A stretch of DNA of 64,000 bases, from the NCBI GenBank assembly GCA_041674105.1, contig JBAYWK010000002.1, forward strand, positions 79,411-143,410, given 5' to 3'. The DNA comes from Minisyncoccota bacterium (GTDB lineage: Bacteria > Patescibacteriota > Minisyncoccia > Phycocordibacterales > DATDWN01). Of this stretch, positions 10,751 to 53,855 are shown one piece after another. Numbering within the stretch: the stretch's first letter is position 1; each line of letters opens with the position of its first letter. The position numbers and the translations under genes are program-made. Under the pieces are notes generated by a model. The model did no database searches. It saw nothing but the letters and a program-made list of their open reading frames with translations, and was not told the origin of the DNA.

Positions 10751-10826
10751 TTGAATACTGCTCTCAGCAGGTATGCAATGGTGGAATAGGTACTTGAGCC
10801 ATTTCGAGTCTCCTCGGAGTCCGAAA

Positions 10827-10865
10827 CTATCTCAAGCTAGCTGGACGTCATGGACAATATCCGAA
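10827..10865 (+). repeat. 36-bp direct repeat, copy 1 (left boundary of Mrr islet)
   Basis: TCTCCTCGGAGTCCGAAACTATCTCAAGCT(A)GCTG; 30 of 30 core identity to copy at 14343-14380. Confidence 0.8.
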
Positions 10866-10931
10866 TGATTTTAATATAGAAAAAGACTAATCTTAAAAGA
10901 CAGTCTTTTTCCTTAAAAACTAGATTACTAA

Positions 10932-11672: not shown

Positions 11673-12164
11673 TTATATTAAATTAGATATTGTTTCTTTT
11701 ACGGCCTCCTCGAAACTATCCCCTACTTTTATAAACTCAAGTGGTAGATTTGCTTCTTTAAACATTTGTTCTATTTGTGTATCTCTTTCAATACGATCTG
11801 GTCTATTATGAGATCCCCCATTTATTTCTAGAGCCAATACAGGATTAAAATACTTATCACATACCAGAAAATCAACATGCTTTGGTAAAATCTTATTTCT
11901 CATTTTGTAATAATCATGCCCATTCGGTACATCCAAAATATCAGCTATACGCATCTTTGGAAAAATATAATAATCTTCTGGTAATTGTTTTTTAAGTTCA
12001 AAGAAAAAAGCAGATTCACTCTGATTCATTACACTATATTTTTTCTTATAACTAGGACCTTTAGAAATACCTTCTGTTTTAATTTTCTTAAACCAGTTTA
12101 GATCTTTCAACAAACCTATACCGAGAAGTATTCCTATAAAAATGAAAATTGGTAGTATGTTCAT
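11673..12164 (-). CDS. DUF2726-like protein with N-terminal TM anchor (restriction-endonuclease-like fold)
   Basis: 163 aa; VDFLVCDKYFNPVLALEINGGSHNRPDRIERD matches DUF2726 core; 2-nt gap to upstream mrr. Confidence 0.55.
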   Translation of the reverse strand: MNILPIFIFIGILLGIGLLKDLNWFKKIKTEGISKGPSYKKKYSVMNQSESAFFFELKKQLPEDYYIFPKMRIADILDVPNGHDYYKMRNKILPKHVDFLVCDKYFNPVLALEINGGSHNRPDRIERDTQIEQMFKEANLPLEFIKVGDSFEEAVKETISNLI

Positions 12165-38508: not shown

Positions 38509-38516
38509 TAAAATAA

Positions 38517-38588
38517 GGCCTGGTAGCCAAGTGGTAAGGCATTCCTCTGCAAAAGGAATATACGGCGGTTCAATTCCGCCCCAGGCCT
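38517..38588 (+). tRNA. tRNA-Cys (anticodon GCA)
   Basis: GGCCTGG acceptor, anticodon loop CTGCAAA, T-arm GGCGGTTCAATTCCGCC. Confidence 0.8.
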
Positions 38589-38620
38589 CCCAAATAATTT
38601 TATTTTTGGAAAAATAATAT

Positions 38621-38705
38621 GCCCGGATGGCGGAACTGGTATACGCGCACGACTTAAAATCGTGTCTCGCAAGGGATGTGGGTTCGATTCCCACTCCGGG
38701 CACCA
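38621..38705 (+). tRNA. tRNA-Leu (anticodon TAA), CCA encoded
   Basis: GCCCGGA acceptor, anticodon loop CTTAAAA, long variable arm, T-arm GTGGGTTCGATTCCCAC. Confidence 0.85.
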
Positions 38706-38712
38706 AAAAATC

Positions 38713-38874
38713 AAATGTTGATTTTTTGATCCCAGAGAGCAAGGCAATGTTATTGCCTTGCGTTGGGAATCGAAAAGCGGAGCGGTCTACAGTCACACCA
38801 GTGACTGTCGCGAGTTGCGGACACGAGAAAAATTTTCGACGGAAAATTTTTACTCGCGGAAGATTCCCCACCAC
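38713..38874 (+). repeat. tRNA-trailing structured mini-element (family A) between tRNA-Leu(TAA) and tRNA-Lys
   Basis: hairpins AAAAAATCAA-ATG-TTGATTTTTT, GCAAGGCAAT-GTT-ATTGCCTTGC, then GGGAATCGAAAAGCGGAGCGG, ACAGTCAC-ACCA-GTGACTGT, CGCGAGTTGCGGACACGAG, AAAATTTTC-GACG-GAAAATTTT. Confidence 0.7.
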
Positions 38875-38950
38875 GCATCCATAGCTCAGTTGGTAGAGCA
38901 ACTCCCTCTTAAGGAGATGGTCGCAGGTTCAAATCCTGCTGGGTGCACCA
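38875..38950 (+). tRNA. tRNA-Lys (anticodon CTT), CCA encoded
   Basis: GCATCCA acceptor, D-arm GCTCAGTTGGTAGAGC, anticodon loop CTCTTAA, T-arm GCAGGTTCAAATCCTGC. Confidence 0.8.
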
Positions 38951-39083
38951 CAGAAAAAAGTAATCTTATTACTTTTTGTCAGGATTTGAACAGTTTGTCG
39001 GTCTACGAACCTAGCAAGGCTTGTCAACAAACTGGTGCCTAGAAAAATTACTTGCGACGGCAAGTAATTTTTTGAGGGAAAAT
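38951..39083 (+). repeat. tRNA-trailing structured mini-element (family B) downstream of tRNA-Lys
   Basis: TTGAACAGTTTGTCGGTCTACGAACCTAGCAAGGCTTGTCAACAAACTGG and hairpin AAAATTACTTG-CGACGG-CAAGTAATTTT; co-linear with 28430-28549. Confidence 0.7.
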
Positions 39084-39099
39084 TCCTGCTGGGTGCACA
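39084..39099 (+). repeat. displaced direct copy of tRNA-Lys 3' end
   Basis: TCCTGCTGGGTGCACA vs tRNA TCCTGCTGGGTGCACC. Confidence 0.8.
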
Positions 39100-39505
39100 C
39101 GATTCAAAAACAGCATGTTATGCTGTTTTTGTTTACGTGTGCAAGACGGAGCGCGACGGCGCGAGTCCAGGTCGGGAAAATTTTTAGCAAAAAATTATTC
39201 CTGACCACAAGAACTTCCAGATTTTTTCTTACATGTGCAGACTGGAGCGGGTACCAGCTCACTAGGGCTGGTCGCGAGGTCAGGGTCCGAGGAAATTTTC
39301 GAGCGACGGCGAGAAAATTATCCAGGACACATGATTCTTGAGTGACAACTAAATAAAATACCCAATTGGGGTACTAATCCTGTAAGGATCGATATCCTGC
39401 CACAATAATACTGGAGTCCAAGGAAATTTTGTTTTGACGAAAACAAAATTATCCAGGACACATGAACTAAAATTATTCCTGACCACAAGGACTGTTTCAA
39501 ATTTT
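39100..39505 (+). repeat. tandem array of further mini-elements, each ending in a progressively degenerate copy of the tRNA-Lys 3' end
   Basis: units end AAAATTATTCCTGACCACAAGAAC (39200), AAAATTATCCAGGACACATGATTC (39324), AAAATTATCCAGGACACATGAAC (39455), AAAATTATTCCTGACCACAAGGAC (39478); unit 39223-39323 is family A (GGAGCGGGTACCAGC-TCACTAGG-GCTGGTCGCGAGG...AATTTTC-GAGCGACGGCGA-GAAAATT). Confidence 0.6.
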
Positions 39506-39541
39506 TTATACTTGTGTAAAGTGCAAACCAAAGAATAAAAT

Positions 39542-39742
39542 CTACTCCTGTATCAACTTCACAGCATAAACTATTGGAGCTAGAGCTGTCCTAGTCATCA
39601 TTTTAAGCGTTTCATTATTTTCTATTACCTTGGCCATAGGAGGACTGGTTTTATAATAAGCCTCTACAAATTTTTGACCTACCTCATTGGTTAATAGTTT
39701 TTCATCTCTAAAATTCCTCAGCATCTCGACCTCTGGTTCCAT
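39542..39742 (-). CDS. hypothetical small protein
   Basis: 66-aa ORF, weak support. Confidence 0.2.
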   Translation of the reverse strand: MEPEVEMLRNFRDEKLLTNEVGQKFVEAYYKTSPPMAKVIENNETLKMMTRTALAPIVYAVKLIQE

Positions 39743-39903
39743 AGGGCTTCCATAAGCAGCTGTAGCTATAAAACATGAACTACTAGAAGTAGGAGCTACT
39801 ATTTTACATATTTTACAATCTCACCTTAGTAGCAAAACAAAGACCTCTCATTTCATTTAACCTCTTCCATTTTTTGAAAAAATAATATAAAGTATAAATC
39901 ATT

Positions 39904-39985
39904 GGGCAAGTGGCGGAATTGGTATACGCGCTAGTCTTAGGAACTAGTGCCTCACGGCTTGGGAGTTCGAGTCTCCCCTTGCCCA
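39904..39985 (+). tRNA. tRNA-Leu (anticodon TAG)
   Basis: GGGCAAG acceptor, anticodon loop CTTAGGA, long variable arm TGCCTCACGGCTT, T-arm GGGAGTTCGAGTCTCCC. Confidence 0.8.
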
Positions 39986-39990
39986 CAAAA

Positions 39991-40324: not shown

Positions 40325-41023
40325 TTAGTTTGATGTTTGAAAAGTAGAAGGCCAAGTTATATTCTCATTGCCAGAAGCATCTCTAGCATATATTACATAA
40401 TAATATGTTGTATTTGGAACTAGTGATGAAATAACTGCTGAATGGGATGTTCTCAGATCACTGTGAACTAACATACTTGAACCCCCAATAGTAACTCCTG
40501 ATGTTGGACTTGCCTCTACCATAGCTGGAAATGAAGTGGAGTAGTAAACTATTGCTGATGCATTTCTATTAGTATTCCAATTTAGACTTACAGTATTATT
40601 TGAAGTACTAACATTTACAGACTGAATAGCTGGAGAGCTACTGTTTCCTGTAAATCCGCCCATTTTTTGATTAAGTGCAGCCATTGTAATTGGACCAACG
40701 CGTCCATAGCCAGTAGTTGCAGGTGTTCCGGAATTTACTATTCCGTTATTGGCCTGAAACCTTTCTACAGCGGCCTTTGTAAGTTGTCCAAAATACCCTG
40801 TTACTAGACCAGATGGGTAGACACTAGCGTCCAAAGCTAAATATGTTTGGAGGTCTGAAACATCTTGACCCCTTGAGCCAACTTCTAATGAACGTGTTAG
40901 TGTGGCTGCGCTAGCTGTAACAGCCAAACCAAACATAAGGATTAATGCGATAACGGTGATTGGTATTTTTAGTATACCAGCCATTGTCATTGGAGAAAAC
41001 TCTAAGATTTTTGTGTTTTTCAT
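40325..41023 (-). CDS. secreted protein with peptidoglycan-binding (PG_binding_1-like) domain and Ig/FN3-like beta domain
   Basis: signal/TM, then GQDVSDLQTYLA...GYFGQLTKAAVERFQANNGI (PG-binding consensus), then S/T/N-rich beta-rich C-terminus. Confidence 0.55.
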   Translation of the reverse strand: MKNTKILEFSPMTMAGILKIPITVIALILMFGLAVTASAATLTRSLEVGSRGQDVSDLQTYLALDASVYPSGLVTGYFGQLTKAAVERFQANNGIVNSGTPATTGYGRVGPITMAALNQKMGGFTGNSSSPAIQSVNVSTSNNTVSLNWNTNRNASAIVYYSTSFPAMVEASPTSGVTIGGSSMLVHSDLRTSHSAVISSLVPNTTYYYVIYARDASGNENITWPSTFQTSN

Positions 41024-41637
41024 ATAGTTTTTTATTTAATTATAATGATAGAACATCGCAAATAATTTCAAAGTGTTAACCTGTATACCTTTTACTACAA
41101 ATATTAGCTAGAAAACCATTGTAGTCGACTTTTTAATATCAACAAACCAGAAAGTCACTTATTAGAGACTCTTGCGACTTCTATATTATACACTTAATAT
41201 TGACAAACTAACAGTTAAATTGCTTTATAACACATATATACAAATAAACCTATAAGTTGTCAAATAGAGGATGTACTGTTATAGTCTAATGAAGAGATGC
41301 CAATAAAAATTGAAACCAAGAAGAATAAACTCCTCTATAGTAACCATTAATTAAGCGTATAATATATATTTATAACAAGTTTTTTATAAAATATCAATAC
41401 AAAAAGTTGATAACTTGTGGAAAAACTTTAAAAAGTAACCCCTACTAGGCCAATTTGATGCAAAGATACTTTTATGCTTTAAACCAAGAAATATTGCTCT
41501 GACAAACCATTTTTTGAGCAAAACTTAGCTTGACTTTTTTATTGTTTTGTGATAGAATGAATAACGGAATGAGAATTGCCTCAAAAGGTAAAACTTTTAG
41601 TCAGTTCTTTGAAAATTCAATCTTGAAAGGAGCTTAT

Positions 41638-42780
41638 ATGTGGATTCTGACAGCAGGACTGGTTTCGGTCATTTTGACCGTAGCCCTCATCGCCGTGGCA
41701 CTTTTCTCATCTTCCTCAAAAAAAGACGAGGAGGCCAAAAACAAAAATTTTTCCGAGGACTCAAGTATTTGGAGAAAGTTGGGGTTTATAGATGAAACTC
41801 CCAATTTAATAAGAGCTGTGGTAGCTGGGGACGCAGAAAGTGGTCCCATACTCTACTATACAGCCAATGTAAGAGGTAAAAAAATAGATAAAAAAGGAAG
41901 ACTAACTCATTTAGAAGATGAGGAAGACCAACAGAGTGGATTAAACCCATTCCAACTTTTTACCATACACACCTTCGGCAAAAGGTGGATAGGCCTCCCT
42001 TTTTTCCGAAATGTGAAACCGATTGATATAGATCGTGTTGTAAAAAAAGATACACAAGATGCGGATCAGGAAAAACTGAAACTCTCTGGTGTCTTAGGCG
42101 CTTCAAAAAAAACAAGTTATGGCTTGTACGCGGAGTTTCCGCGCCCAACATACCATCATGAGTTAGATACAAACGATCAGGTAAGATTCAACATAATCAG
42201 CACAGCTATTGTGGTTGTAGAGGATGCAGAACAAGCATTTACTATCTACAACGATAGTTTACTTCAAAACATTAGTGATATAATTGAGACCTTTATCTCA
42301 AATAAAGTTCTCAAAATGAATTGGGAGAACTACAAAAACGAAGGGTCAGAGAACCAGACAGGTAAGACTGGTACAGAGAAGTTTGCAAAAAGTATGGATG
42401 ATTTAAACTGCAGACTCTCTCCTTTAGGAGTTATTGTTAAACATCTCTTCATAAGCGACCCGGAAATCTCTAAGGGGGCGGAGGAGATGCAGAAAGCTCT
42501 AGAGGCAACTCGCATCGCTAAAGAAAGGGCCAACGCCAAATCAGCAGAGGCTGATGGCGAAGGTCGGGCCATAGAGAGAATTGCCACAGCGAAAGCTGAT
42601 CGTTACAGACAGCTAGTAGAGTTCTACAAAGCTCAGGGTGTATCTGCACCAGAAGCAGTGGTTATGGCAAACTCTATGGTCTCGGCGGAATTTAATGCGG
42701 AGGCTATAGGGAAACTCAATGTTTATGTGGCTGGTGGAAGCGGTGTCCAGTTGACACTTCCGGAAGGAGGAAAAAAATGA
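41638..42780 (+). CDS. SPFH/band-7 (flotillin/YqiK-like) membrane protein
   Basis: RBS AAAGGAG before ATG 41638; N-terminal TM, SPFH core, C-terminal Ala/Glu-rich coiled coil (AEEMQKALEATRIAKERANAKSAEADGEGRAIERIATAKADRYRQ). Confidence 0.65.
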   Translation: MWILTAGLVSVILTVALIAVALFSSSSKKDEEAKNKNFSEDSSIWRKLGFIDETPNLIRAVVAGDAESGPILYYTANVRGKKIDKKGRLTHLEDEEDQQSGLNPFQLFTIHTFGKRWIGLPFFRNVKPIDIDRVVKKDTQDADQEKLKLSGVLGASKKTSYGLYAEFPRPTYHHELDTNDQVRFNIISTAIVVVEDAEQAFTIYNDSLLQNISDIIETFISNKVLKMNWENYKNEGSENQTGKTGTEKFAKSMDDLNCRLSPLGVIVKHLFISDPEISKGAEEMQKALEATRIAKERANAKSAEADGEGRAIERIATAKADRYRQLVEFYKAQGVSAPEAVVMANSMVSAEFNAEAIGKLNVYVAGGSGVQLTLPEGGKK

Positions 42781-44009
42781 AGTGGTTTAAAAAGGAGACT
42801 TTTTCTACCATTAAAAAGACGGCGCTATGGACTCTCTTGATCCTAGTAATCCTAGGATTAGGAGGAGTCTTCACTTTCTATGTCTTTGGATTTGTAGCCT
42901 CAATGGTTCACAAAGCCATTGAGGCTACAAATACGGTGGAAAAAAATAATTCAATGTGGTTGCTGATTGCAGTCATTTTGACACCACCTTTCTTGGCTTT
43001 CATGTTTATCCTCCATCGCAAGGGCAAGTTAAAGAAGATAAACATGAGCCGTGCAAAAAAAACCGACTGGAAGTGGTTAAAGACACTTCTGTCATTTGTA
43101 GCCATACACATACTCCTTGCCATCTTCTTTCACGAGGAAAACTGGTACAAGAATTATGTGTGGAATGTTTGGATTGTCTTGGCGCAAGCTTCGATAATCC
43201 TAATCATATTGTTTATGAGGAAGGATGTGACCTTAAGAGGTAAAACCTCCTCACAACTGACAGGATGGGGTATGATGGCCTTGTTGATTGTCCTTACTGG
43301 GACAGTCTACAAGGTATGGTGGACTCCTAAAGGAACTTCTACCACCCAGACCCAAACCTCTTCGAGATTGAATCCGAGTGAAGAAAGTGCTTGCTCGGAT
43401 GTTATCAGCCCCCTTGGTCCTGTCCCTGGGTTCAATGCCGAAGGAAAAGCCAAGGCTGAAAAGTTTTGGCTCGAGCACGCCTCAAAAGAGGATGCAGAGA
43501 TGATGGTTTCGACAATCTTACCAAGAGAGTCGAACTTCAACCATCTCGAAGCTGACAAGACTCAAGAGCTTGTTGGAAGAGAGAACTGTTGGGATAGAGG
43601 CCTCCACCAGATCAATATGTACTGGTGGAGATTAGAGACCGAGAAATTTCCAGAAAAGGAAGTCCTCGGAAGAAAAATTTCGGAAATTGATCCTCTCAAA
43701 GAAGAGGACAATTACCTAGCCGCCCTATATCTCTATCAAAATCGAGGAGGTCTCAAACCATGGGACGCCTCAAACAAAAAAAACTTTCGGATTATTATCG
43801 CCCCTGTCGGCGAATGGTCCGAAAGAGTTCTAAATAGAAAAGGTTTGTCGTGGTCGCAATTGAGCGACTCACAACCTGTAGAAATAAAAACAGACAAAGG
43901 TTCCTTTGAAATCAAGGCCGGGGAAAGGTATGATTTCAGCGAACCAATAGCATGGATTGAGTTTAAATCCCTAGGTGACAAAGAGATTCTTTACAAAATC
44001 ATAGATTAA
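42777..44009 (+). CDS. polytopic membrane protein with C-terminal lytic transglycosylase (SLT/GH23-like) domain
   Basis: 4-5 N-terminal TM helices; C-terminal ES(N)...GRENCWDRGLHQIN...NYLAALYLYQNRGG resembles catalytic-Glu/GLMQ/AYN motifs of SLT domains; ATGA overlap with SPFH gene. Confidence 0.5.
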   Translation: MKWFKKETFSTIKKTALWTLLILVILGLGGVFTFYVFGFVASMVHKAIEATNTVEKNNSMWLLIAVILTPPFLAFMFILHRKGKLKKINMSRAKKTDWKWLKTLLSFVAIHILLAIFFHEENWYKNYVWNVWIVLAQASIILIILFMRKDVTLRGKTSSQLTGWGMMALLIVLTGTVYKVWWTPKGTSTTQTQTSSRLNPSEESACSDVISPLGPVPGFNAEGKAKAEKFWLEHASKEDAEMMVSTILPRESNFNHLEADKTQELVGRENCWDRGLHQINMYWWRLETEKFPEKEVLGRKISEIDPLKEEDNYLAALYLYQNRGGLKPWDASNKKNFRIIIAPVGEWSERVLNRKGLSWSQLSDSQPVEIKTDKGSFEIKAGERYDFSEPIAWIEFKSLGDKEILYKIID

Positions 44010-44126: not shown

Positions 44127-44399
44127 TTAGAGTTGTATGTATTTTACTTCTCCCGGATCTATACCGAAAGTTACCAACACGAATCTTATAAGACCATAAA
44201 CAGAAAACATTACCACCATTCCTACTATGCCCCATATCATAGAGTTTCTAGCTTCTACCTTTTTGCTGTCTCCAGCGTCCAAAGAAAGAAATCTAATGAC
44301 ACCATAACCAAAATAAACAAAAGATAAAGCAAACAAAAGATAAATAATTGGATTCAATATCAAACTATTAACTTTGTTTAGAAAAGGGACAATAGTCAT
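44127..44399 (-). CDS. small 2-TM hairpin protein, pilin-like paralog 1 (no signal peptide)
   Basis: 90 aa; core FGYGVIRF-LDAGDSKKVEARNS-MIWGIVGMVVMFSVYGLIRF shared with paralogs 2-6. Confidence 0.6.
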   Translation of the reverse strand: MTIVPFLNKVNSLILNPIIYLLFALSFVYFGYGVIRFLSLDAGDSKKVEARNSMIWGIVGMVVMFSVYGLIRFVLVTFGIDPGEVKYIQL

Positions 44400-44414
44400 A
44401 ATAAAACTTATTTA

Positions 44415-44768
44415 TTATAGACCTGGAACTTTAGGAAGAGTAGGTGCTGATCCGCCTGAGATACCAAAGGCTGTTTGTACCCACGCTATCAAACCATATA
44501 CAGAAGCCATAACTACTAGAGCTATAATACCGTAGATCATTATTGACTTACCTTCTGATGCAGCTTTTGGATCACCTGCTGACTGAATATATTTTACAAG
44601 ACCCCAGAAGAAGTAAATTATAGCTAAAGCAAACAATATTGGGATAACTAAATTGTTTAGAATATCTCCAAACTGCTGAACTAATCTTTCAAGTCCACCT
44701 AGGTTACCTTCTTGAGCAAACGCTAGCATCGGTGATAATGATAGTGCAGCATAAACGATTTTTTTCAT
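44415..44768 (-). CDS. TrbC/VirB2-like pilin-type small membrane protein, paralog 2
   Basis: signal peptide ending AFA-QE, then TM1-FFWGLVKYIQSAGDPKAASEGKS-MIYGIIALVVMASVYGL. Confidence 0.65.
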   Translation of the reverse strand: MKKIVYAALSLSPMLAFAQEGNLGGLERLVQQFGDILNNLVIPILFALAIIYFFWGLVKYIQSAGDPKAASEGKSIMIYGIIALVVMASVYGLIAWVQTAFGISGGSAPTLPKVPGL

Positions 44769-44889
44769 TATTTTTATAATATATTATAATAATTTTTATA
44801 AAAACCAACGACCACTTTTAAAATAAAGTACCTCTGTATTATAGTATAAACAAGAGTAAAAAACAAGGTCTATGTGGATAAATTGAAGA

Positions 44890-45288
44890 CTAATTACAAT
44901 CTGCGCCCAAGTTGTCGTTTACAAGACAGTCATTGCTCATCGCTCCAGAACTATTACCCCCAGAACCATTTGGGCTTATTCCTACAGTTGAACCTATAAA
45001 ACCTAAAATTCCATAAATAGAAGCCATAACAAAAAGAGCTATGATACCCCAAATCATTCTATTTCTACCCTCTGTACGAGCCTTATCTTCTCCAGAGTGG
45101 AGTATGAACTGACCTGCACCCCAAAAAAACAGTAATAAACCTAGTCCAAAGAAAACTTTTATTAAAAGATTTATAAGAGATATAGAACCTACCAGCAACC
45201 CTTTAAGTCCTTCCAAGGCAGCATAAGAAACTAAAGGAAATAAAAATAAAGAAAGTGTAGATAATATTTGTATTTTTTTTGTATTCAT
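44890..45288 (-). CDS. TrbC/VirB2-like pilin-type small membrane protein, paralog 3
   Basis: start at internal MNTKKIQ (ATG 45288); signal peptide ending SYA-ALEG; FFWGAGQFILHSGEDKARTEGRN-RMIWGIIALFVMASIYGILGFI. Confidence 0.6.
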   Translation of the reverse strand: MNTKKIQILSTLSLFLFPLVSYAALEGLKGLLVGSISLINLLIKVFFGLGLLLFFWGAGQFILHSGEDKARTEGRNRMIWGIIALFVMASIYGILGFIGSTVGISPNGSGGNSSGAMSNDCLVNDNLGADCN

Positions 45289-45295
45289 AATTTTA

Positions 45296-45688
45296 TTAAA
45301 ATTTAATCGTGCTATCCACCCACTCAATCTGCCCTCCCGTGGGCAAAAAAGGCATAGCACTGCCATCGCCACCCTTACCAAATTCTAGATCATTTACAAC
45401 AAGAGTAACTATTGTTCTATAAGAAAACAAGATAAATAAAGCTAAAATACCCCAAAGCATATAATTTTTACCTTTACTTAATTCCGCTTCATTCCCTGAA
45501 TTTATAACAAATTTAGATAATCCCCAGAAAAAAACAACTAAAGCGGCGCCGAACATAATAGGGACCATAAGATTTAGGATACTAATCACATAAGCTACTA
45601 CGCTCTTGAAAGTACCCCCTTCATTCCCAAAGGCAAAAGTAAAAAATGGAACACTATAAAAAATTATAGAACTAAAAAAATATTTCAT
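45296..45688 (-). CDS. TrbC/VirB2-like pilin-type small membrane protein, paralog 4
   Basis: signal peptide ending AFG-NEGG; FFWGLSKFVINSGNEAELSKGKN-YMLWGILALFILF. Confidence 0.6.
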   Translation of the reverse strand: MKYFFSSIIFYSVPFFTFAFGNEGGTFKSVVAYVISILNLMVPIMFGAALVVFFWGLSKFVINSGNEAELSKGKNYMLWGILALFILFSYRTIVTLVVNDLEFGKGGDGSAMPFLPTGGQIEWVDSTIKF

Positions 45689-45692
45689 ATAT

Positions 45693-46106
45693 CTAATTTA
45701 TTTCAATAAATTGACTAACTGTACTTTGTAAAACCTTAGAAATGCCCGCGGCGCCGAGCAAAATTCCCGCCCCTACAAGGGCCCAGAGCAAGTTTTCATG
45801 AGCACTTTGTATTTTAGCTGAGTTTCCTCTAGCTGTGACATACTTAAAACCAGCTAGTATAATATACATTACAGAAGCTACAGCAGCTATGGGCATAACC
45901 ACATTGTTTAGTATTGCAACCAAAAGATCAGGAAGATTATTTCCTACTGATTGTTTTAAAGGATTTGTAATCCTTATAACCTGACTACTACCACCAGGAC
46001 TTTTTGGTGGAGGAGTACTTCCATTGGCATAGGCTACATTATTTGTAAACAGCACAGGTAACAATAAAACTGATGTAATTAGTAAATGTATTAGAAATTT
46101 TTTCAT
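45693..46106 (-). CDS. TrbC/VirB2-like pilin-type small membrane protein, paralog 5
   Basis: signal peptide MKKFLIHLLITSVLLLPVLFTNNVAYA-NG; ILAGFKYVTARGNSAKIQSAHEN-LLWALVGAGILLGAAGI. Confidence 0.6.
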   Translation of the reverse strand: MKKFLIHLLITSVLLLPVLFTNNVAYANGSTPPPKSPGGSSQVIRITNPLKQSVGNNLPDLLVAILNNVVMPIAAVASVMYIILAGFKYVTARGNSAKIQSAHENLLWALVGAGILLGAAGISKVLQSTVSQFIEIN

Positions 46107-46118
46107 TTTATTTTATTT

Positions 46119-46559
46119 TTATATTGGAAAACTTTCGCTTTCACGCAAATTTTCATCCACCAAAACAGAAACTATTAAGTTGACTATAAGCCAAGCTGCC
46201 ATAACTAAAATTATACCAACAACAACTTTCCAAAGCATCTTATTTGCTTCAGCTCTTTTACCAGCATTATCTCCCGAAGTCATATAGTTGTAACCAGCAT
46301 AAGCTATGACAACTACAGAAAACATCAAAGCGATTCCTGTAGCAAAATTTACTAAACTTTTTATGGTCACGATAATATCAGAAAAATTACAAGTGTCTCC
46401 CTCGCAACTTGGAACGACTCCTGTATAACCACTACCGCTACCTTGTGTCTGTCCACTCGGTGGAGGAGTACTTCCATTGGCATAGACTACACTATTTGTA
46501 AACAACACAGGTAACAATAAAACTGATGTAATTAGTAAATGTATTAGAAATTTTTTCAT
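46119..46559 (-). CDS. TrbC/VirB2-like pilin-type small membrane protein, paralog 6
   Basis: start at MKKFLIHLL (ATG 46559); first 40 codons nearly identical in DNA to paralog 5; AYAGYNYMTSGDNAGKRAEANK-MLWKVVVGIILVMAAWLIV. Confidence 0.6.
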   Translation of the reverse strand: MKKFLIHLLITSVLLLPVLFTNSVVYANGSTPPPSGQTQGSGSGYTGVVPSCEGDTCNFSDIIVTIKSLVNFATGIALMFSVVVIAYAGYNYMTSGDNAGKRAEANKMLWKVVVGIILVMAAWLIVNLIVSVLVDENLRESESFPI

Positions 46560-46560
46560 T

Positions 46561-47859
46561 TTATTTTTTAAACAAAGAATCAATAGAATCACTGGCTTTT
46601 AAAATAGCTTCTGAAACTCTTTGCTGTCCAGATGTCACAGACTCTACCATAGTTTTAAATATTTCTGTTGTATTTACAGGAGAAGGATCCACCCAAGATT
46701 TACTTATGAGAGCCGAGTCATAAAAAACAGATCTATAAGCATCCGTTGGCTTGTCCGCTAAAAGATCTCTCCTAACTGGAGGAAGATTTGTCTTGGATTC
46801 CAAAACTTTCAAAGCATCAGGCTCAACCAAGCTTGTCACAAGCAAAAAAGCTGCTCCTATAGCCTTGGACTGTTTAACAATAGAAAGTCCATAGATATTT
46901 GCAAAGTTTGACATATTTTTTGCTGTTCTGATTTGAGGAACATAAGTGACATCAAAATTTAAGTTTGGATTTTTCTGCTGAATAGAAAACAGTTCGGAAG
47001 CAAAACCAACATAAGTAGCCAAATTTGAAGAAAGAAAAAAATTCAAGGAAGAAGGTAGTGACCTATTCCAAGTATAATAAACTGAAGTCGGATTAGAAAA
47101 CTGAGTATAAAAATTTAAAGCTGACTGACCAGGAGCAATAGTATAATTTAGCTGAGAAGATAAAACTGACTTATATCCAGCAGAATCAGTGTAAGAAACT
47201 ATAGGAGTACCAGCTTGGAGCAAAAGTAAAGAGAAAATACTTTTAGCATTAGTTACATTTTTCCATTCTCCGAGAGAAAGAGCACTTTGCATAATATTTC
47301 CAGAAGAGTCTTTACGAGTCACTTTATCTATAAGTCCATAAAATTCATCCCAATATTTTGGCGGACTTGATATGAGATTGTTTGAAAACATATCTCTGTT
47401 CCAATACATAACCATCGGATCTATTATAAAAGGAAATGCTGTAATACCTTTAGTAGTCAGGAAAATCTCACCATCTTCTATAAAGATATCTTTAAAATTT
47501 CTTTGACTGAAATTTTCATAAGGTACAACAAATATCTTGTTTCTATGAGTATAGATGGAGTCTTGTCTCAAAATAACTATATCTGGACCAACCCCGTCGG
47601 CTAAAGCTTCTATAAACTTATCATCAAAATCCGCAGAATCCTTTCTGACATAAGTAACAGCGACTTTTTTATTTTTGGCTATACTTGAAGCTTTGTAAAC
47701 ATTATTGAAAGTATCTTCAGGTATTGTGCCCCAAATCAGAAGAGAAGCAGATCCTTCACCTAGACCGCTCTTCTGGGTGGCAAACAAACCTAACCCTAAA
47801 ACAAGAGATAGAATAAAAATTATTATGAGCCCAATTTGAAAATTACTCATTTCTTTCAT
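46561..47859 (-). CDS. secreted extracellular solute-binding-protein-like (SBP family 1-like) protein, orphan (no adjacent ABC permease/ATPase)
   Basis: N-terminal TM/signal; LLIWGTIPEDTFNNVYKASSIAKNKKVAVTYVRKDSADFDDKFIEALADGVGPDIVIL matches SBP_bac_1 N-terminal lobe pattern. Confidence 0.5.
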   Translation of the reverse strand: MKEMSNFQIGLIIIFILSLVLGLGLFATQKSGLGEGSASLLIWGTIPEDTFNNVYKASSIAKNKKVAVTYVRKDSADFDDKFIEALADGVGPDIVILRQDSIYTHRNKIFVVPYENFSQRNFKDIFIEDGEIFLTTKGITAFPFIIDPMVMYWNRDMFSNNLISSPPKYWDEFYGLIDKVTRKDSSGNIMQSALSLGEWKNVTNAKSIFSLLLLQAGTPIVSYTDSAGYKSVLSSQLNYTIAPGQSALNFYTQFSNPTSVYYTWNRSLPSSLNFFLSSNLATYVGFASELFSIQQKNPNLNFDVTYVPQIRTAKNMSNFANIYGLSIVKQSKAIGAAFLLVTSLVEPDALKVLESKTNLPPVRRDLLADKPTDAYRSVFYDSALISKSWVDPSPVNTTEIFKTMVESVTSGQQRVSEAILKASDSIDSLFKK

Positions 47860-48383
47860 AACTTTTTTAAAATCATACCATAATGATGAGCTCCAGCTCT
47901 TATTTCTCTATCTAAATGAAAACCACCTTCTTCAAACATTTCTAAAGCTACATTTCTCTGAACAATATCCTCTGGCCTAGGTCCTATACCGCTAAAAGAG
48001 TCCGTCCAATCTACAACTAATACACGACCACTTGGCTTAAGTATTCTTTTCACTTCTTGTATAACTCCTCTTTTATCCTCCGCCTGAAACAAAACATTGC
48101 ATATTAGAGCAAAATCTATAGAACCTTCCCTCAGGTGAGTTCCTCCAACTTTCTCTATATCGCCCCAAACAACCTCTACATTGTATAATCCTTCTTTGGA
48201 AGCGTTATTTTTTAATTTGGTCAAAAGTTCTTTTTGAGCATCCACCGCGTAGACTGTTCCTGTAGAAATCAGTGCTTTAGAGGCGGCAATAGTATAAAAC
48301 CCTGAACCGGCTCCAAGGTCAGCAATCTCCATACCAGCTTGAATACCACATTGATCTATATTTTTTTGAGGGTCAGAAAACAT
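47856..48383 (-). CDS. class I SAM-dependent methyltransferase
   Basis: motif I ADLGAGSGFYTIAASK, motif post-I VYAVD, ILKPSGRVLVVD; 4-bp overlap with downstream gene. Confidence 0.75.
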   Translation of the reverse strand: MFSDPQKNIDQCGIQAGMEIADLGAGSGFYTIAASKALISTGTVYAVDAQKELLTKLKNNASKEGLYNVEVVWGDIEKVGGTHLREGSIDFALICNVLFQAEDKRGVIQEVKRILKPSGRVLVVDWTDSFSGIGPRPEDIVQRNVALEMFEEGGFHLDREIRAGAHHYGMILKKL

Positions 48384-48518
48384 ACAACTTTATTGTACTA
48401 TGTTATTTTTTAATATCAAAGAAAGAAATACACATTTTTAATAAATACCAAAAACTTTATTGACTTATCATAATTTTGAAGAAAAACCTCATCTCACTAT
48501 ATCTTAATAAATACCAAC

Positions 48519-48856: not shown

Positions 48857-51331
48857 TTACAAACAAATAAGTGAAGCAATGGAATCCCCTTCACGAAGCT
48901 TCATTACACGAACTCCTTGAGTTTGTCTACCTAAAACAGGGATTTCTTTTCCATCTACACGAATGACCTGAGATTTTTTAGATATAGCCACTATTTCAGC
49001 TTCTTCACTATCAAATATTTTGGCTGAAATAAGAAGTCCTGTTTTAGAAGTTACTTTTGCTGTTTTTATTCCAGAACCACTGCGTTTTTGTATTTTATAT
49101 TCGTCTACATCTGTTCTTTTTCCATACCCATTTAGAGATATAACCATAAGAGTTGGATTGTTTGATTCTTTCAAGACAACTTCCGAAGCAATAACGTAGT
49201 CACCTTTGGAAAGTTTTATACCTCTAACACCCATAGCAGTTCTTCCCATTTCTCTAATATCAGATTCTTTAAAGTGTATAGATTGTCCTTTGGCGGTCAC
49301 TATTATGTTTGTATCTCCTTTTTTAACAAAAGAAGCGGATATCAGAGCATCTCCATCATCTAGCTTTATAGCTATAATTCCAGATATTCTAACATCATGA
49401 AAACTAGCAGCAGATACTTTTTTAGCTACACCTTGTTTTGTAACCATAATAAGTGAAGAATCAGATTTCTTGATCTCCTTTGGCATAGGCAATATAGAAG
49501 TTATATTCTCTCCTTCGGCTAAAGGTAGGAAATTCATAACGGACTTACCTTTTGTTGCTCTTCTACCCTCGGGAATATCATACATTTTTGTCTGATAAGC
49601 TTTACCTTTATCTGTGAAAAACAAGAGGTCGCTGTGTGTACTTGTTATAAGCAAATCTGTCACAAAATCCTCTTCTTTTGTATCCAGATCAACCACCCCA
49701 ACACCTCCACGCTTTTGTTTTCTAAATTCATCTGGGTTTGTACGCTTTATATACCCTCCCGCTGTCAAAACAAGAGCATTTTCTTCATCTGGTATAAGAT
49801 CTTCTACAGAGAGAACCTGAACTCCACCTTTTATGATCTTTGTTCTCCTTTCATCACCATATTTTTCTTTTATTTCCTCTGATTCTTTTTTAATTATAGA
49901 AATTATCCTTTTTACACTTCCTAAAATAGATTTTAACTCTTCTATAAGCAACTGTATTGCTTTCAAATCATCTTCTATTTTTTTTCTTTCAAGGCCAGCA
50001 AGTCTCTGGAGTCTCATCTCTAAAATAGCTGTAGCTTGAATAGGGGAAAACTTAAATTCTTTTATCAAATTTTTGTGTGCTTCTTCCGTGTCTTTTGAAG
50101 ACTTGATTAGTTTTATTATTCTATCTATATGGTCTAAAGCTTTCTTTAAACCGAGTAAAATATGCTCTTTTTCCAGGGCTTTCTTTAGATCAAATTCCGT
50201 CCTACGACGAACAACATCTTTTCTGTGTATTATAAACTGCTCTAAAATATCTTTTAGAGACAAAGTCTTAGGAATACCATCTACCAAAGCCACTGTGTTG
50301 TAGTGAAAAGTCTCTTCTAGCTGTGTGTGCTTATACAAATAATTTAAAACTGTCTGTGGGTGTGCGGTCCCTTTTAAGTCAATAACAATGCGAATATCTT
50401 TTGCAGATTCATCCCTTAGACCTTTTACACCTTCTAGTTTCTTCTCTTGAACAAGCCCGGCAATTCTTTCAATAAGAGTAGCTTTGTTTACACGAAAAGG
50501 AATAGAAGTGATAACAATTTGAAATTGGCCAGATTTATTTTCTACAGCTTCAGCAACACCCCTGACTACCACACCACCTTTTCCGTTGGCATAAGCATGA
50601 GCAATATCTTTTTGATTGAAAGCTATTCCGCCAATAGGAAAATCTGGTCCTTTTATAAATTGAAGCAGATCTTCTGTAGTAGCTTCTGGGTTGTCTACCA
50701 AAAAACAAACAGCATCCATAACCTCTACTAGATTATGCGGAGGTATGTTTGTAGCCATACCCACAGCAATTCCAAGTGTTCCATTTAACAAAAGGTTTGG
50801 AACAGCTGTCGGCAAAACTCTCGGCTCTTTTTTTGTACCATCATAATTTGGAGTAAAATCTACAGTATCTTTTTCAATATCTCGCAAAAGCTCAGAAGCA
50901 AGGCGAGCCATTTTGGCTTCTGTGTACCTATAAGCAGCCGCGTTGTCACCATCAATAGAACCAAAGTTTCCTTGGCCTATAATAAGAGGGTAACGCATAG
51001 TAAAATCCTGAGCCATTTTTACCATTGAGTCATAAACAGCCACATCTCCATGCGGGTGGTAATCTCCAATAACAGAACCGACAACTGTCGCTGACTTCCT
51101 AGTCTTACTTGAAATAGTAAGACCATGCTCATTCATTGCATAAAGTATTCTCCTGTGCACAGGTTTTAGCCCATCACGAACATCCGGCAGAGCACGATCT
51201 GTGATGACAGACATAGCGTAGTCAATAAATGACCTCTTCATTTCGTCAGTGATTTCTTGAGAAATCACATTTTTTCTTTCAGGAATCATTGATTCGCCTT
51301 TGGTAGAATTGTCTGTATCTTTTTTTGCCAT
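48857..51331 (-). CDS. gyrA: DNA gyrase subunit A
   Basis: 824 aa; active-site region [11 protein letters not shown] (Tyr), [14 protein letters not shown]-like segment, C-terminal beta-pinwheel repeats. Confidence 0.9.
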
Positions 51332-51376
51332 ATTTCCTTCTATTATATCATATTAGACCAAAAATTGGTAGCGATT

Positions 51377-51817
51377 TTAATTGGAATTATTAGTATTAAT
51401 CGCTCCTTGTGTCGTTGTAGATAAGTCATTTTCCCCTTCTATTTGTATGGTACTAGAAGCCGTAGAAGATGAAGAAAGAGTGTCTTGTCCCAAAATCTCA
51501 TCAGTCTTATTTGTGGTAGAAGTTGAATAATAATAATTTTCTATATTATTACTTAAATCTGAAACTGTTTTACCAAGATTTCCATAACTTTCTTCTAAAG
51601 AACGGAATCCCTCCCACATATTACCCAAAAAAGCATTGGCTGGAGTTGGATCTTTTCTGATCTCAGCTTTTTTCTTACCCATATCTCTGACATCTGGATA
51701 AATAACAGAGAGCCATACAACAAAAATCAATCCTACCACAAGAAAAGAAACTAGAATTGAAAATCTTTTTTTATAAGAATCTGGTTTTTTCCTTAAATTA
51801 TCTAAATAATTAAACAT
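51377..51817 (-). CDS. hypothetical membrane-anchored protein with Ser/Thr-rich C-terminus
   Basis: 146 aa; TM near N-terminus; STSTTNKTD...SSSTASST low-complexity tail. Confidence 0.4.
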   Translation of the reverse strand: MFNYLDNLRKKPDSYKKRFSILVSFLVVGLIFVVWLSVIYPDVRDMGKKKAEIRKDPTPANAFLGNMWEGFRSLEESYGNLGKTVSDLSNNIENYYYSTSTTNKTDEILGQDTLSSSSTASSTIQIEGENDLSTTTQGAINTNNSN

Positions 51818-51838
51818 AATATAAGAAATTTAACATAC

Positions 51839-52480
51839 TTAAACACTGGATGTTATAATCATAATGTCTCCTCCTCTACCTTCCAAATCTTTCTTCTTTA
51901 GAGTTAGTTTGTCCATTTCCTCGGCTTTTTCAGCTCCAGCTTCTTTCAAAAAAGTTTTTAAGGCTTTATCATCCCCTATTCCTTCAAAATGACTCGGAAT
52001 AATAATTTTTGGTTCAAACTGAACAGCTATTTTACGAGCCAAAGAAGGTGACAGGACACCGTCTCCACCAATCGGAACAAAGAGAACATCCATACTATCC
52101 ATTTCTTCAGTCATCTTTTCTGGTATTTTTTCATCTAACATAGCTCCCAAAAAACACAAATTCATTCCTTCTAAGTTCACACTATATATAGTATTAATTC
52201 TTTTCTGTCCGCCATACTCAGAACTCGTAGCATAACCTTTTATAAAAATACCAGAGACTTCATACTCACCAGGACCTGAAATTATAAAAGATTCTTTATC
52301 GCCTCTAGAAGTAGCATCACTACCATTATGTTCTGGAGAATCAATAAGGGAAATAAGAGTTATATCGCTCCCAAAACGAGAGCTTTTGTACTTTGAATCT
52401 TTTGAGATAGGGTTTACAGCTAAAGTTATATCTCCAAAAGAAACCTTAAAAAAATCTACTCCATGGTGTGTAATTATCAT
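51839..52480 (-). CDS. metallo-beta-lactamase-fold hydrolase
   Basis: start at MIITHHG; His-cluster THHGVDFF and MBL fold-wide pattern. Confidence 0.6.
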   Translation of the reverse strand: MIITHHGVDFFKVSFGDITLAVNPISKDSKYKSSRFGSDITLISLIDSPEHNGSDATSRGDKESFIISGPGEYEVSGIFIKGYATSSEYGGQKRINTIYSVNLEGMNLCFLGAMLDEKIPEKMTEEMDSMDVLFVPIGGDGVLSPSLARKIAVQFEPKIIIPSHFEGIGDDKALKTFLKEAGAEKAEEMDKLTLKKKDLEGRGGDIMIITSSV

Positions 52481-52703
52481 AGTTACAAGATTATAGCACA
52501 ACCTGAAACAGATAAAAAAGAGAAAAATAAAAATTACAAAATTGCTAAAGATACAAATATATGTATAATACTTACCTGTATATTATAAGCATGCAATAAG
52601 CGCTAAACTTCTCTCACCTACCAAATGTAGACCGTGAGTCCTAATCTATCAATTATGGTAGAAAGCACTCCGAGATAAGCCGTTTATAGCAATATACAAT
52701 CTA

Positions 52704-53855
52704 ATGGCTAAAACAATAGAAGAAGAAAAAGATTTAGAAGTAGCAGAAGAGATAAAACCTAAAAAAGAAGGTTTTATGTCAAAAATGATTAACTCTACTG
52801 GCACACCACCATCTGTGGAAGATGTTATAGAGGGAGTCGTTATTGGTATTGAAAAATCATCTGTATATATAGACATACCACCTTTTGGCACAGGTATTAT
52901 ATACGGAAGAGAATTTATAAACGCTAGAGATATAATAAAAAAGATAAATGTCGGAGACTCTGTTGCCGGCAAGGTTGTCAGTATCTCAAACAAAGATGGT
53001 TATATAGAAATTTCTCTAAAAGAAGCTCGCCAGGCCCTTATTTGGGGTGAAGCAGAAGAGGCTATCAGAGAAAAAAGAATATACGAGATTCCTGTCCAAG
53101 AAGCAAACAAAGGAGGACTGCTCCTTTCATGGCAAGGTATATCTGGTTTTCTTCCAGCATCACAACTAAAGACAGAACATTATCCTAGAGTTGCCGATGG
53201 GGATAAAGACAGGATTTTAGAAGAACTTAGAAAATTGGTTGGTCAAAAAATATCAGTTTCTATAATAGGAGCTTCTCCAAAAGAAGGAAAACTTATATTC
53301 TCTGAGAAGAATCCTGAACAAAAAAGCAAAGAACATATAATAGATAGATACGAAGTTGGAGATACTGTCACAGGAGAAGTCACAGGAATGGTTGATTTTG
53401 GAGTATTTATAAAACTAGAAGAAGGCCTAGAAGGGCTTGTTCACATTTCTGAAATAGACTGGGCTTTAGTTGAAAATCCAAAACTATTGTTTAGAATCGG
53501 AGAGAAAATAAAAGTTAAAATAATAGAAATAAAAGACGGAAAAATATCACTTTCTATAAAAGCTTTGAAAGAAAATCCTTGGGGTGAAGCCGAAAAGAAA
53601 TATAAAAAAGATGATATTGTGGATGGAGTTATAATAAAATTCAATAAACATGGAGCTTTAGCTTCTATTGAAGAAGGTGTAGCTGGGCTTGTTCACATTT
53701 CAGAATTCGGTAGTGAAGAAAAAGTAAAAAGTACACTTGAACTTGGTAAAAGCTATAAGTTTAAAATAACTTTGTTTGAACCAAAAGAACAAAAAATGAC
53801 TTTATCCTATGTAGATCCTAATAAAAAAGAGGAAGCTGTAGAAGAAATAAAATAA
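52704..53855 (+). CDS. rpsA: 30S ribosomal protein S1 (four S1 domains)
   Basis: 383 aa; repeated S1 OB-fold units (GxV.G.V....GxFV.l..GleGL.HISE). Confidence 0.85.
   Translation: MAKTIEEEKDLEVAEEIKPKKEGFMSKMINSTGTPPSVEDVIEGVVIGIEKSSVYIDIPPFGTGIIYGREFINARDIIKKINVGDSVAGKVVSISNKDGYIEISLKEARQALIWGEAEEAIREKRIYEIPVQEANKGGLLLSWQGISGFLPASQLKTEHYPRVADGDKDRILEELRKLVGQKISVSIIGASPKEGKLIFSEKNPEQKSKEHIIDRYEVGDTVTGEVTGMVDFGVFIKLEEGLEGLVHISEIDWALVENPKLLFRIGEKIKVKIIEIKDGKISLSIKALKENPWGEAEKKYKKDDIVDGVIIKFNKHGALASIEEGVAGLVHISEFGSEEKVKSTLELGKSYKFKITLFEPKEQKMTLSYVDPNKKEEAVEEIK

Follow-up and report, generated by a model that had tools for sequence, protein, structure and literature searches.

Arrays of tandem genes for VirB2-like pilins have been described in Patescibacteria. 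A search of 3,035 genomes of this phylum with the Pfam families PF18895 and PF04956 yielded 441 arrays of 2–11 VirB2-like genes with a mean identity of 25% and a maximum of 54% (Quinonero-Coronel et al. 2025; PMC12102498). Arrays were within 20 genes of virB4 in 1135 of 1948 assemblies, and the authors suggested that they serve adaptation to host strains. Six PF18895 pilins, SEML1_0014–0019, are encoded in the gene cluster of a type IV secretion system (T4SS) in Southlakia epibionticum ML1, and epibiotic growth requires every one of them (Wang et al. 2023; PMC10633639), a result repeated in a T4SS review of 2025. T4SS pilins were also among the top-expressed genes of unknown function in a Patescibacteria enrichment (Kuroda et al. 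2024). Here we describe an operon with such an array on the minus strand of a 64-kb stretch of a Minisyncoccota bacterium genome (contig JBAYWK010000002.1, positions 79,411 to 143,410; hereafter the window). The operon encodes an S-adenosylmethionine (SAM)-dependent methyltransferase (MT), a solute-binding protein (SBP) and six small pilin-like proteins. It had been singled out in an analysis of the letters and their open reading frames (ORFs), here called the original prediction, as a possible distinct surface filament or adhesion system. Our analysis favors, at a probability of roughly 0.55, the view that this operon, conserved in Paceibacteria, encodes a heteromeric surface structure of the VirB2/TrbC type whose ligand- or host-binding head is the SBP.

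The window array resembles the published Patescibacteria arrays (those of S. epibionticum, of TM7x, where it is called the ‘Sec-secreted array’, and of the survey with its 441 arrays) in its PF18895 pilins, its phylum, its tandem but divergent genes, their Sec-type signals and a context without relaxase; its gene number falls within the range of 2–11, and mutual identity is low, at 13–43%. As such arrays had already been published (PMC12102498, PMC10633639), the suggestion of a distinct kind of system does not stand. The differences lie in the form. Whereas the arrays of S. epibionticum ML1 and those in the available part of Table S3 of PMC12102498 adjoin virB4 or virB6, the window array lies beside gyrA and is tens of kb or more from T4SS genes; no virB4 was found in the window or close to the cassette in the 80 related loci described below. 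It is headed by an SBP and an MT, neither of which is mentioned with arrays in the text of PMC12102498 or PMC10633639. No binding protein appears among the available rows of the gene table for the S. epibionticum T4SS cluster, and our literature searches found no report of an SBP or MT with pilin arrays. Positional orthology, SBP fusions and an internal promoter have likewise not been described for the published arrays. We conclude that the locus belongs to a known kind in a form that the papers searched do not describe: it lies away from virB4, starts with an SBP that some lineages fuse to the first pilin, has a regulatory layout of its own and is conserved in hundreds of species.

The eight minus-strand ORFs, namely the MT, the 432-aa SBP and six small genes of 90–146 aa, were found where the original prediction had placed them. 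We number the pilins 1–6 in transcription order, opposite to the earlier count, whose paralog 6 is our pilin 1. The operon and its elements are as follows, with types A and B as defined below.

47856–48383, minus strand: MT gene, 175 aa; first gene of the operon, without signal peptide
46561–47859, minus strand: SBP gene, 432 aa; N-terminal hydrophobic anchor or signal sequence
46119–46559, minus strand: pilin 1 (type A), 146 aa; the ORF can be extended to a GTG at 46592
45693–46106, minus strand: pilin 2 (type A), 137 aa
45296–45688, minus strand: pilin 3 (type B), 130 aa
44890–45288, minus strand: pilin 4 (type B), 132 aa from the ATG at 45288; the ORF reaches 45381
44415–44768, minus strand: pilin 5 (type B), 117 aa; shortest of the predicted secreted members, consensus-like
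44127–44399, minus strand: pilin 6 (type B), 90 aa; without signal peptide, conserved end of the array
46006–46114, minus strand: repeat copy at the 5′ end of pilin 2, 109 nt; spans the ribosome-binding region and the signal peptide
48392–48419, minus strand: promoter-like site P1, TTGATA-16-TACAAT, just upstream of the MT ATG
44838–44881, minus strand: putative internal promoter in the pilin 4/5 spacer; TTATCCACA at 44881–44873, TTGTTT at 44866–44861, a 17-nt gap, TATAAT at 44843–44838

The MT and SBP ORFs overlap by 4 nt, in agreement with the translational coupling originally proposed for this pair, and 1 nt separates the SBP stop codon from the pilin 1 ATG. The remaining junctions are 4–15 nt, save for 121 nt between pilins 4 and 5. 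The start chosen for pilin 4 gives the same length as the gene call in the related locus L001. From this layout we conclude that the MT, the SBP and pilins 1–4 form one transcription unit with near-zero gaps, and that a putative second promoter precedes pilins 5 and 6.

To place the operon among its relatives, a scan of one genome per species was used, which gave at least 595 stretches with a relative of the SBP. The best 80 of these (42–74% identity; GTDB class Paceibacteria) were inspected. These loci were annotated with our own ORF calls and hidden Markov models (HMMs), and the denominators given below count the loci with enough sequence.

The small proteins had been likened to VirB2/TrbC-type pilins, and family searches bear this out. 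A Pfam scan matched all six to PF18895 (T4SS_pilin, of the VirB2/TrbC superfamily) with E values from 9e-6 to 3e-12, so their resemblance is not due to chance. Pilins 1–5 scored 46.8, 28.5, 29.6, 31.5 and 37.2 bits, all above the curated cut-off of 26.6, and pilin 6 scored 26.1 bits (E 9e-6), 0.5 bit under it; the E values of pilins 1–4 were 3e-12, 1.6e-6, 7.6e-7 and 1.9e-7. The search originally proposed, against PF04956 (TrbC/VirB2), had a divided outcome: pilins 1 (2e-4) and 2 (1.2e-5) matched below threshold, with relatives reaching 7e-8, whereas it was the related PF18895 that all six matched. Sixty array members from 10 loci gave the same picture, since all 60 matched PF18895 (E ≤ 0.01) and 12 also matched TrbC. 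NCBIfam yielded only sub-threshold matches, to a ‘pilin-like conjugal transfer protein’ of a Mycoplasma integrative and conjugative element. Matches to bacteriocin, immunity or holin families, which had been named as evidence against a pilin identity, were absent from Pfam and NCBIfam at E ≤ 0.1 and from PHROGs at E ≤ 0.01, and none of the outcomes that the original prediction had set down as refuting it was seen. None of the six N-termini contains the class III signal of type IV pilins (G followed by F/M-x-x-x-E), no type IV pilin family was matched, and the MT is a soluble class I enzyme rather than a PilD-type one.

Sites resembling those of signal peptidase I (SPase I) were present in five of the translations (VYA/N, AYA/N, AFG/N, SYA/A and AFA/Q, with the slash marking the cut) and absent from pilin 6. 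Five pilins thus appear to carry Sec/SPase-I-type signal peptides with predicted cleavage, the number given originally, and the signal-less ‘paralog 1’ of that account is our pilin 6. Pilin 1 has a signal peptide, a Pro/Ser/Gly-rich N-terminal extension with a C..C-NF loop and a two-helix hairpin. The motif said to be common to all six, W-G...Y-I followed by MIWGIIAL...S.YGL, is clear in genes 3–6 and only loose in genes 1 and 2. An AlphaFold2 model of pilin 5 (78 sequences, pLDDT 76.8) contained a signal helix followed by helices at residues 23–62 and 67–100. Foldseek found nothing significant for this model in the PDB, nor did a profile of the 60 pilins find anything significant among PDB sequences. 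The modelled fold is in accord with the family assignment and is not proof of it.

The SBP matched SBP_bac_8 (PF13416; 5e-17) and SBP_bac_1 (PF01547; 9e-15) in Pfam, and its profile found sugar- and maltose-binding proteins in the PDB (best 4r9f, E 2e-12). It has a single N-terminal hydrophobic segment and more than 2300 homologues, and is 55–64% identical across Paceibacteria; a 100% identical SBP is on record for a Candidatus Paceibacterota metagenome-assembled genome. Its description as an orphan was upheld by Pfam scans of the larger window ORFs (about 120 aa and up) and of the related loci. The 64-kb window contains no permease or ATPase of an ATP-binding cassette (ABC) importer, its sole ABC gene (14923–16665) being an exporter-type fused half-transporter, and the neighbors of the SBP in all relatives are the MT and pilins, with no ABC partner.

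The linkage between the SBP and the pilins was absolute. A pilin gene directly followed the SBP gene in 75 of 75 loci, at least four pilins were present in 65 of the 66 loci whose sequence runs 3 kb or more beyond the SBP, and the median distance from SBP stop to pilin 1 start was about 4 bp. By comparison, the MT adjoined the SBP in 68 of 79 relatives, gyrA was no more than 2.5 kb upstream in 57 of 61, and a convergent Band_7/lysozyme-like gene pair was downstream of the array in 40 of 55. The SBP–pilin junction is therefore more conserved than any flanking synteny. Across these genomes the SBP behaves as the obligate upstream partner of the array, which is the strongest signal at the locus and had not been raised in the original prediction.

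The partnership extends to gene fusion. When the pilin HMM was iterated, it matched SBPs at the second round because an ORF of locus L067 fuses an SBP with a pilin hairpin. This 560-aa protein (P0241, L067:9992–11674) matches SBP_bac_8 at 4e-16 and T4SS_pilin at 1.3e-4, the latter at residues 481–539. A 568-aa protein (P0242, L093:3510–5216) is 65% identical to it at 99% coverage, and two others, P0311 (597 aa, L091:8001–9794) and P0315 (594 aa), are 46% identical at 100% coverage; P0244 is a fragment with both domains. Full-length SBP::pilin-1 fusions thus occur in these four clusters, with mutual identities of 46–100%. The pilin part is the position-1 orthologue, as its best match was at position 1 in 63–72 loci, and it is 53–59% identical to free-standing pilin 1 proteins. 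Each of the fused genes in L067, L091 and L093 is followed by four more pilin genes. Since the same fusions were recovered from independent assemblies (metagenome-assembled genomes (MAGs) at NCBI and Logan runs), we conclude that they are real and recurrent. Their predicted topology would be coherent: an anchor, the SBP outside, a linker, helix 1 running inward, the loop inside and helix 2 running outward.

Other modules are joined to the pilin hairpin in the same way. A 2170-aa adhesin-like protein encoded within the pilin array of L070 (9747–16259, plus strand) carries a signal peptide and FN3, PKD, He_PIG, Big_9 and cadherin-like repeats, and its C-terminal 90 aa are a hairpin 40% identical to window pilin 2 (E 1e-20); the sequence includes a short masked run (XXXX). 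Several other arrays contain pilins with N-terminal extensions of 100–300 aa. Together with the SBP fusions, these proteins point to the N-terminus of type-A pilins as the place where binding modules are attached.

A different SBP arrangement was seen in one of the fusion-bearing loci, where a peptide-type SBP (SBP_bac_5, 564 aa; L091:1–531) adjoins secG. In the available data for S. epibionticum its counterpart is the essential orphan SBP SEML1_0634 beside secG (SEML1_0635). SBP_bac_5 next to secG may represent another orphan SBP whose setting is conserved in Patescibacteria.

The six pilins were not interchangeable between positions. When each was compared by BLASTP with 36 other six-gene arrays, the best match of pilins 1–6 was at the same position in 36, 36, 28, 28, 34 and 35 arrays, respectively. 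Orthologues were 38–46% identical across species, compared with 23–45% between positions (median within-locus values in relatives). Two types could be recognized. Positions 1 and 2 make up type A: they share 33% identity, resemble TrbC and begin with long extensions rich in Pro, Ser and Gly. Positions 3–6 make up type B, with 30–45% identity among themselves; identity between the types is 23–28%. In the window array, identity to pilin 1 ranged from 11 to 43%, and the top pair in the pairwise comparison was pilins 5 and 6 at 32%. Most arrays end with a gene of about 90–100 aa without a signal peptide. From these comparisons of sequence we conclude that the pilins represent ancient, position-specific orthologue groups in a fixed order, two of type A followed by four of type B.

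Near-identical DNA at the 5′ ends of two paralogs, as originally reported, was confirmed as a direct repeat of 109 nt at 97% identity (46006–46114 and 46459–46567, in pilins 2 and 1). A common N-terminus of pilins 1 and 2 was limited to the closest relatives, being clear in L008 and weak in L026, L017 and L010, and a similar sporadic homogenization has affected positions 4 and 5 in L086. The repeat is confined to this clade and reflects recent local conversion of a leader that is predicted to be cleaved, not a young array. Of the two events originally offered, gene conversion therefore stands for the signal-peptide segment of pilins 1 and 2, and recent amplification of the array is contradicted by the positional orthology.

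The long spacer between pilins 4 and 5 is itself conserved. Among 37 six-gene arrays its length was 40 nt or more in 36, with a median of 99 nt, compared with medians of 2–15 nt at the other junctions. Alignment of 26 loci revealed the arrangement TTATCCACA, N5-6, cTTGtwTTT, approximately 17 nt and TnTAnTATAAT, ending 30–55 nt before the pilin 5 ATG (the spacer is shared by L004, L006, L008, L010–L014, L016, L017, L019–L021, L023–L025, L027, L029, L030, L033–L035, L038, L061 and L066). Exact copies of TTATCCACA occur 44 times in 1.27 Mb of related loci, and 27 of these fall in the pilin 4/5 spacer in sense orientation; with up to one mismatch, the box is present in about 47 of 67 arrays. This 9-mer is the textbook DnaA-box consensus, and DnaA or another factor may bind it. 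An attenuator or processing hairpin was also considered for the spacer and was dropped in favor of a promoter, as the spacer RNA showed no notable folding (z −0.2). The alignment points to a conserved promoter, presumably under the control of a factor that binds the box. Extra regulated transcription of pilins 5 and 6 from a promoter of their own would make pilin 5 the candidate major subunit.

Upstream of the operon, P1 had 10 of 12 matches in a consensus scan. Many relatives (L010, L011, L014, L015, L019, L021, L023, L024, L027, L028 and L030) have a conserved block of TTTGTTAAcAAC, about 20 nt and TTTTTCgTACTATAAT located 5–15 nt before the MT ATG. With the block ending so close to the start codon, the 5′ leader would be very short or absent. 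P1 is the likely start of the operon, as judged from its resemblance to a promoter.

Copies of TTATCCACA with up to one mismatch were not enriched across the window (18 observed, 18.8 expected), and we therefore claim no replication origin in it. An ORF-poor stretch at 10669–11672, which adjoins DUF2726 and Mrr genes, contains exact copies at 11232 (plus strand) and 11415 (minus strand) and a one-mismatch box at 11636; the GC skew has no turning point there, and the stretch is not called an origin. Cumulative GC skew reaches its minimum at about 50000–53000. At about 52.6 kb, just past gyrA and the pilin operon, the genes switch from the minus to the plus strand, and there is no dnaA in the window.

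Comparison with better-known conjugation systems showed both likeness and difference. The window pilins resemble Agrobacterium VirB2, RP4 TrbC and F TraA (PF04956) in size, in a signal peptide (here predicted to be cleaved) and in two hydrophobic helices joined by a short basic loop. In those systems, however, a single pilin gene accompanies VirB3–B11, whereas the window has six genes without adjacent machinery. The classical pilins are matured by cyclization or N-acetylation; the window has no TraF- or TraX-like gene, and the only enzyme gene of the operon is that of the SAM methyltransferase. The archaeal Ced/Ted DNA-import pili, with VirB2-like pilins (PDB 8dft and 8dfu), are also among the closest known systems. 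For the SBP, a parallel is PrgZ of the Enterococcus plasmid pCF10, an extracellular receptor with an SBP fold that is encoded together with T4SS genes and lacks a dedicated permease. PrgZ, an SBP of family 5, binds peptides and feeds the chromosomal Opp permease; it does not adjoin a pilin and is not fused to one. The likeness lies in the fold, the company of conjugation genes and the missing permease; the window SBP is of the sugar/glycerol-3-phosphate type (family 1/8). A functional analogy may also be drawn with the minor-pilin and tip-adhesin complexes of type IV pili and with VirB5, which are low-copy, fiber-priming components with a binding domain encoded beside the major subunit, but their folds are unrelated to the window pilins and the locus has no VirB5 homologue.

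The original prediction stated that VirB4, VirB6 and VirD4 are missing from the window, and Pfam scans of the window ORFs of about 120 aa and up indeed found none of them. Its verdict that this is not a canonical T4SS cassette is sound in that no machinery is nearby. It does not follow that no T4SS is involved, because four relatives have VirB4 elsewhere. According to the available parts of Tables S1 and S3 of PMC12102498, the cassette-bearing Paceibacteria genomes GW2011_GWA2_40_14, C7867-006, Zambryskibacteria RIFOXYC1_FULL_39_10 and Athens0714_16 are VirB4-positive. For GCA_000996025.1 (our locus L026), the part of Table S3 at hand lists VirB4, TrsD and VirB3 as genes 160–162 and a PF18895 pilin as gene 156, with a further VirB2 at gene 409 flagged as ‘not near VirB4’, which may belong to the cassette. 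Against this single VirB2 away from virB4 in the table, our HMM found three pilin genes in L026 before the contig end. The filters used in that survey are likely to under-count this cassette in Paceibacteria. These organisms probably have a T4SS, of which the operon may make use.

The MT matched Methyltransf_31 (4e-19) and Methyltransf_11 (8e-16) in Pfam, indicating a class I SAM-dependent enzyme; its nearest solved structure is 3dh0, an uncharacterized SAM methyltransferase (E 3e-22). Its membership in the operon, assumed from the outset, is borne out by the 68 of 79 relatives in which it adjoins the SBP, but the link is weaker than that between SBP and pilins and is missing from one subclade (L051, L054, L056, L057, L059, L060, L062, L082, L087 and others). 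In that subclade gyrA is followed directly by the SBP, and the array has 7–8 pilins with two extra genes of about 90–100 aa at positions 3–4. Two loci found later have the MT–SBP–pilin unit without gyrA synteny, in one case downstream of GroES/GroEL, LemA and TPM_phosphatase genes and in the other downstream of a DNA methyltransferase gene. The occurrence of the unit in different neighborhoods indicates that it moves as a whole. Many of the cassette-bearing MAGs are labelled uncultured Candidatus Saccharibacteria bacterium (L008–L087). These labels are probably generic; the MAGs have gyrA–MT–SBP synteny and SBP identities of 42–74% in common with Paceibacterota, Zambryskibacteria and Taylorbacteria genomes.

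Two genes on the opposite strand converge on the array.

41530–42780, plus strand: SPFH/Band_7 membrane protein gene (Band_7, 3.4e-8)
42777–44009, plus strand: gene for a 410-aa membrane protein with a putative lysozyme-like C-terminal domain (family profile against PDB, E 1.6e-6)

As a single sequence the 410-aa protein had no match in Pfam or the PDB, whereas its family profile found C-type lysozymes at the E value given. Its ESNFN...DRGLHQIN..WW segment aligns to E35...D52 of hen lysozyme with both catalytic positions matched; E251, S252 and G275 are conserved in the family, whose members also have weak matches below cut-off to PF00062, PF18896 (SLT_3) and PF01464. Relatives of C-type (GH22, animal-type) lysozymes are, to our knowledge, unusual in bacteria. 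The neighbor to which a VirB1-like function had been ascribed thus probably has a lysozyme-like, VirB1-like fold, as judged from this profile and the ES...D.G..QIN motif, and the match makes the earlier idea of a cell-wall remodelling function reasonable. Lysozyme-like homologues are convergent to the array in 33 of 55 relatives and Band_7 homologues are downstream of it in 29 of 55, a looser linkage than that of the SBP. It is possible that the 410-aa protein acts as a VirB1-like partner that opens the cell wall, although its membership in the system is uncertain. The Band_7 gene, co-transcribed with the lysozyme-like gene, is a conserved convergent neighbor with at most a putative role in the system.

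Beyond this pair, a secreted 232-aa protein with PG_binding_1 and Pur_ac_phosph_N (FN3-like) domains is encoded at 40325–41023 (minus strand) and also lies within a few kb of the cassette in L006, L011 and L016. Four tRNA genes (Cys, Leu-taa, Lys and Leu-tag) at 38516–39986 separate IF2/RbfA from the downstream neighbors of the cassette. The window has a G+C content of about 34%, and its larger ORFs encode GyrA, TopA, ClpB, IF2, SerRS, RelA, ParB, FtsZ, FtsA, a P-type ATPase, an exporter-type ABC protein and an Mrr restriction enzyme. Defense-like genes are found at 5353–6324 (Schlafen/AlbA_2 with a bacterial PH domain), 11673–12164 (DUF2726) and 12167–13060 (Mrr-type restriction endonuclease).

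In the model that we favor, five of the pilins would be exported by the Sec pathway and cut by signal peptidase I, and all six would reside in the membrane as hairpins with both termini outside and the loop inside. A T4SS encoded elsewhere (VirB4, TrsD, VirB3 and VirB6) would extract and polymerize them. Type-B pilins, chiefly pilin 5 with its own promoter, would make up the shaft, and the type-A pilins 1 and 2 would be low-copy subunits that show binding modules at the surface. The module of pilin 1 would be the SBP, bound without a covalent link in the window and as part of one chain in the fused lineages; in other lineages type-A pilins would carry adhesin domains. The structure would serve host-cell attachment or uptake, and the MT would be a loosely linked accessory.

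Several points weigh against this model. No T4SS ATPase, VirB6 or VirB3 was found in the window or in the approximately 4–6 kb beyond it, which contain housekeeping genes only, and within 10 kb on either side in the 80 relatives the only recurrent ORF of at least 450 aa with a Walker A motif was IF2, with no T4SS ATPase. We know of no filament seen for any Patescibacteria VirB2 homologue. The SBP keeps its N-terminal anchor, so that the fused forms would be tethered at both ends, a geometry that suits a membrane complex no less than a pilus tip. The AlphaFold2 model of the SBP (17-sequence alignment, pLDDT 36.7) carried no pocket information. Dependence on a T4SS rests on homology and on the published table for four genomes.

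Some of these points would fit the main rival explanation, a membrane machine that works independently of a T4SS, in which the SBP catches a small molecule (a sugar, a glycerophosphodiester or a cell-wall fragment) outside the cell and hands it to a 12-helix channel of the six pilins that replaces the ABC permease. An ordinary SBP_bac_1/8 fold without an ABC partner, the absolute SBP–pilin adjacency, fusions that are three-helix membrane proteins tethering the SBP, a stoichiometry-like conservation of six subunits in fixed order and the lack of T4SS genes near any of the 80 loci would all be expected of such a machine. We nevertheless consider it unlikely, as no VirB2/TrbC relative is known to form a solute channel, the operon has no energizing component such as an ATPase or ion-coupled domain, and the adhesin-like fusion of about 2000 aa suggests display over transport. 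Moreover, related genomes possess a T4SS, and the homologous arrays of other Patescibacteria lie within T4SS clusters in the available data. A more elaborate proposal, quite unlikely in our judgment, is a self-contained envelope device whose SBP catches a host-derived molecule and passes it to a six-subunit VirB2-type conduit, with the main subunit tied to the cell cycle through the DnaA-box promoter. If true, it would explain why the SBP is kept at 55–64% identity without a transporter and why it has repeatedly been fused to pilin 1.

The array could also be read as a cassette for antigenic or host-range variation, in which interchangeable copies of one major pilin are kept diverse through duplication and gene conversion. 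A proposal of this sort exists for the VirB2 paralogs of Bartonella and Anaplasma, and PMC12102498 suggests it for Patescibacteria arrays. The near-identical segment of pilins 1 and 2 and the sporadic events of the same sort in L008 (positions 1/2) and L086 (positions 4/5) are what such a cassette would produce, but conversion is limited to the signal peptide, which is predicted to be cleaved. The positions differ in their N-terminal extensions, in the signal peptide (none at position 6) and in the promoter (positions 5–6), and an orthologue at each position in 28–36 of 36 species indicates that they are ancient and individually conserved. This positional orthology largely refutes antigenic variation, which we regard as very improbable. 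Scarcely credible is the idea that the genes encode holins, bacteriocin/immunity pairs or small toxins of the membrane, with no more than a superficial likeness to pilins. The products are indeed small two-helix proteins beside a lysozyme-like gene, but that gene is on the opposite strand and its product has its own membrane anchor, all members match PF18895 and none matched the toxin, immunity or holin families of the three databases searched, and the operon is chromosomal and vertically conserved in hundreds of species.

VirB2-like arrays belong to the small set of envelope features known from experiment to be essential when Patescibacteria grow in dependence on a host, and the SBP provides a candidate binding partner for the pilin structure that is open to expression and ligand screening. 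Subunits that are not interchangeable, together with a separate promoter for the likely major one, argue for a defined heteromeric assembly and against antigenic variation. The SBP is present in at least about 595 species-level genomes, and the cassette was found in all 80 inspected loci wherever the contig passes the SBP gene; surveys centered on virB4 will under-count these detached arrays. If the structure proves to work without a T4SS, the conjugative pilin fold would here have been put to a new use.

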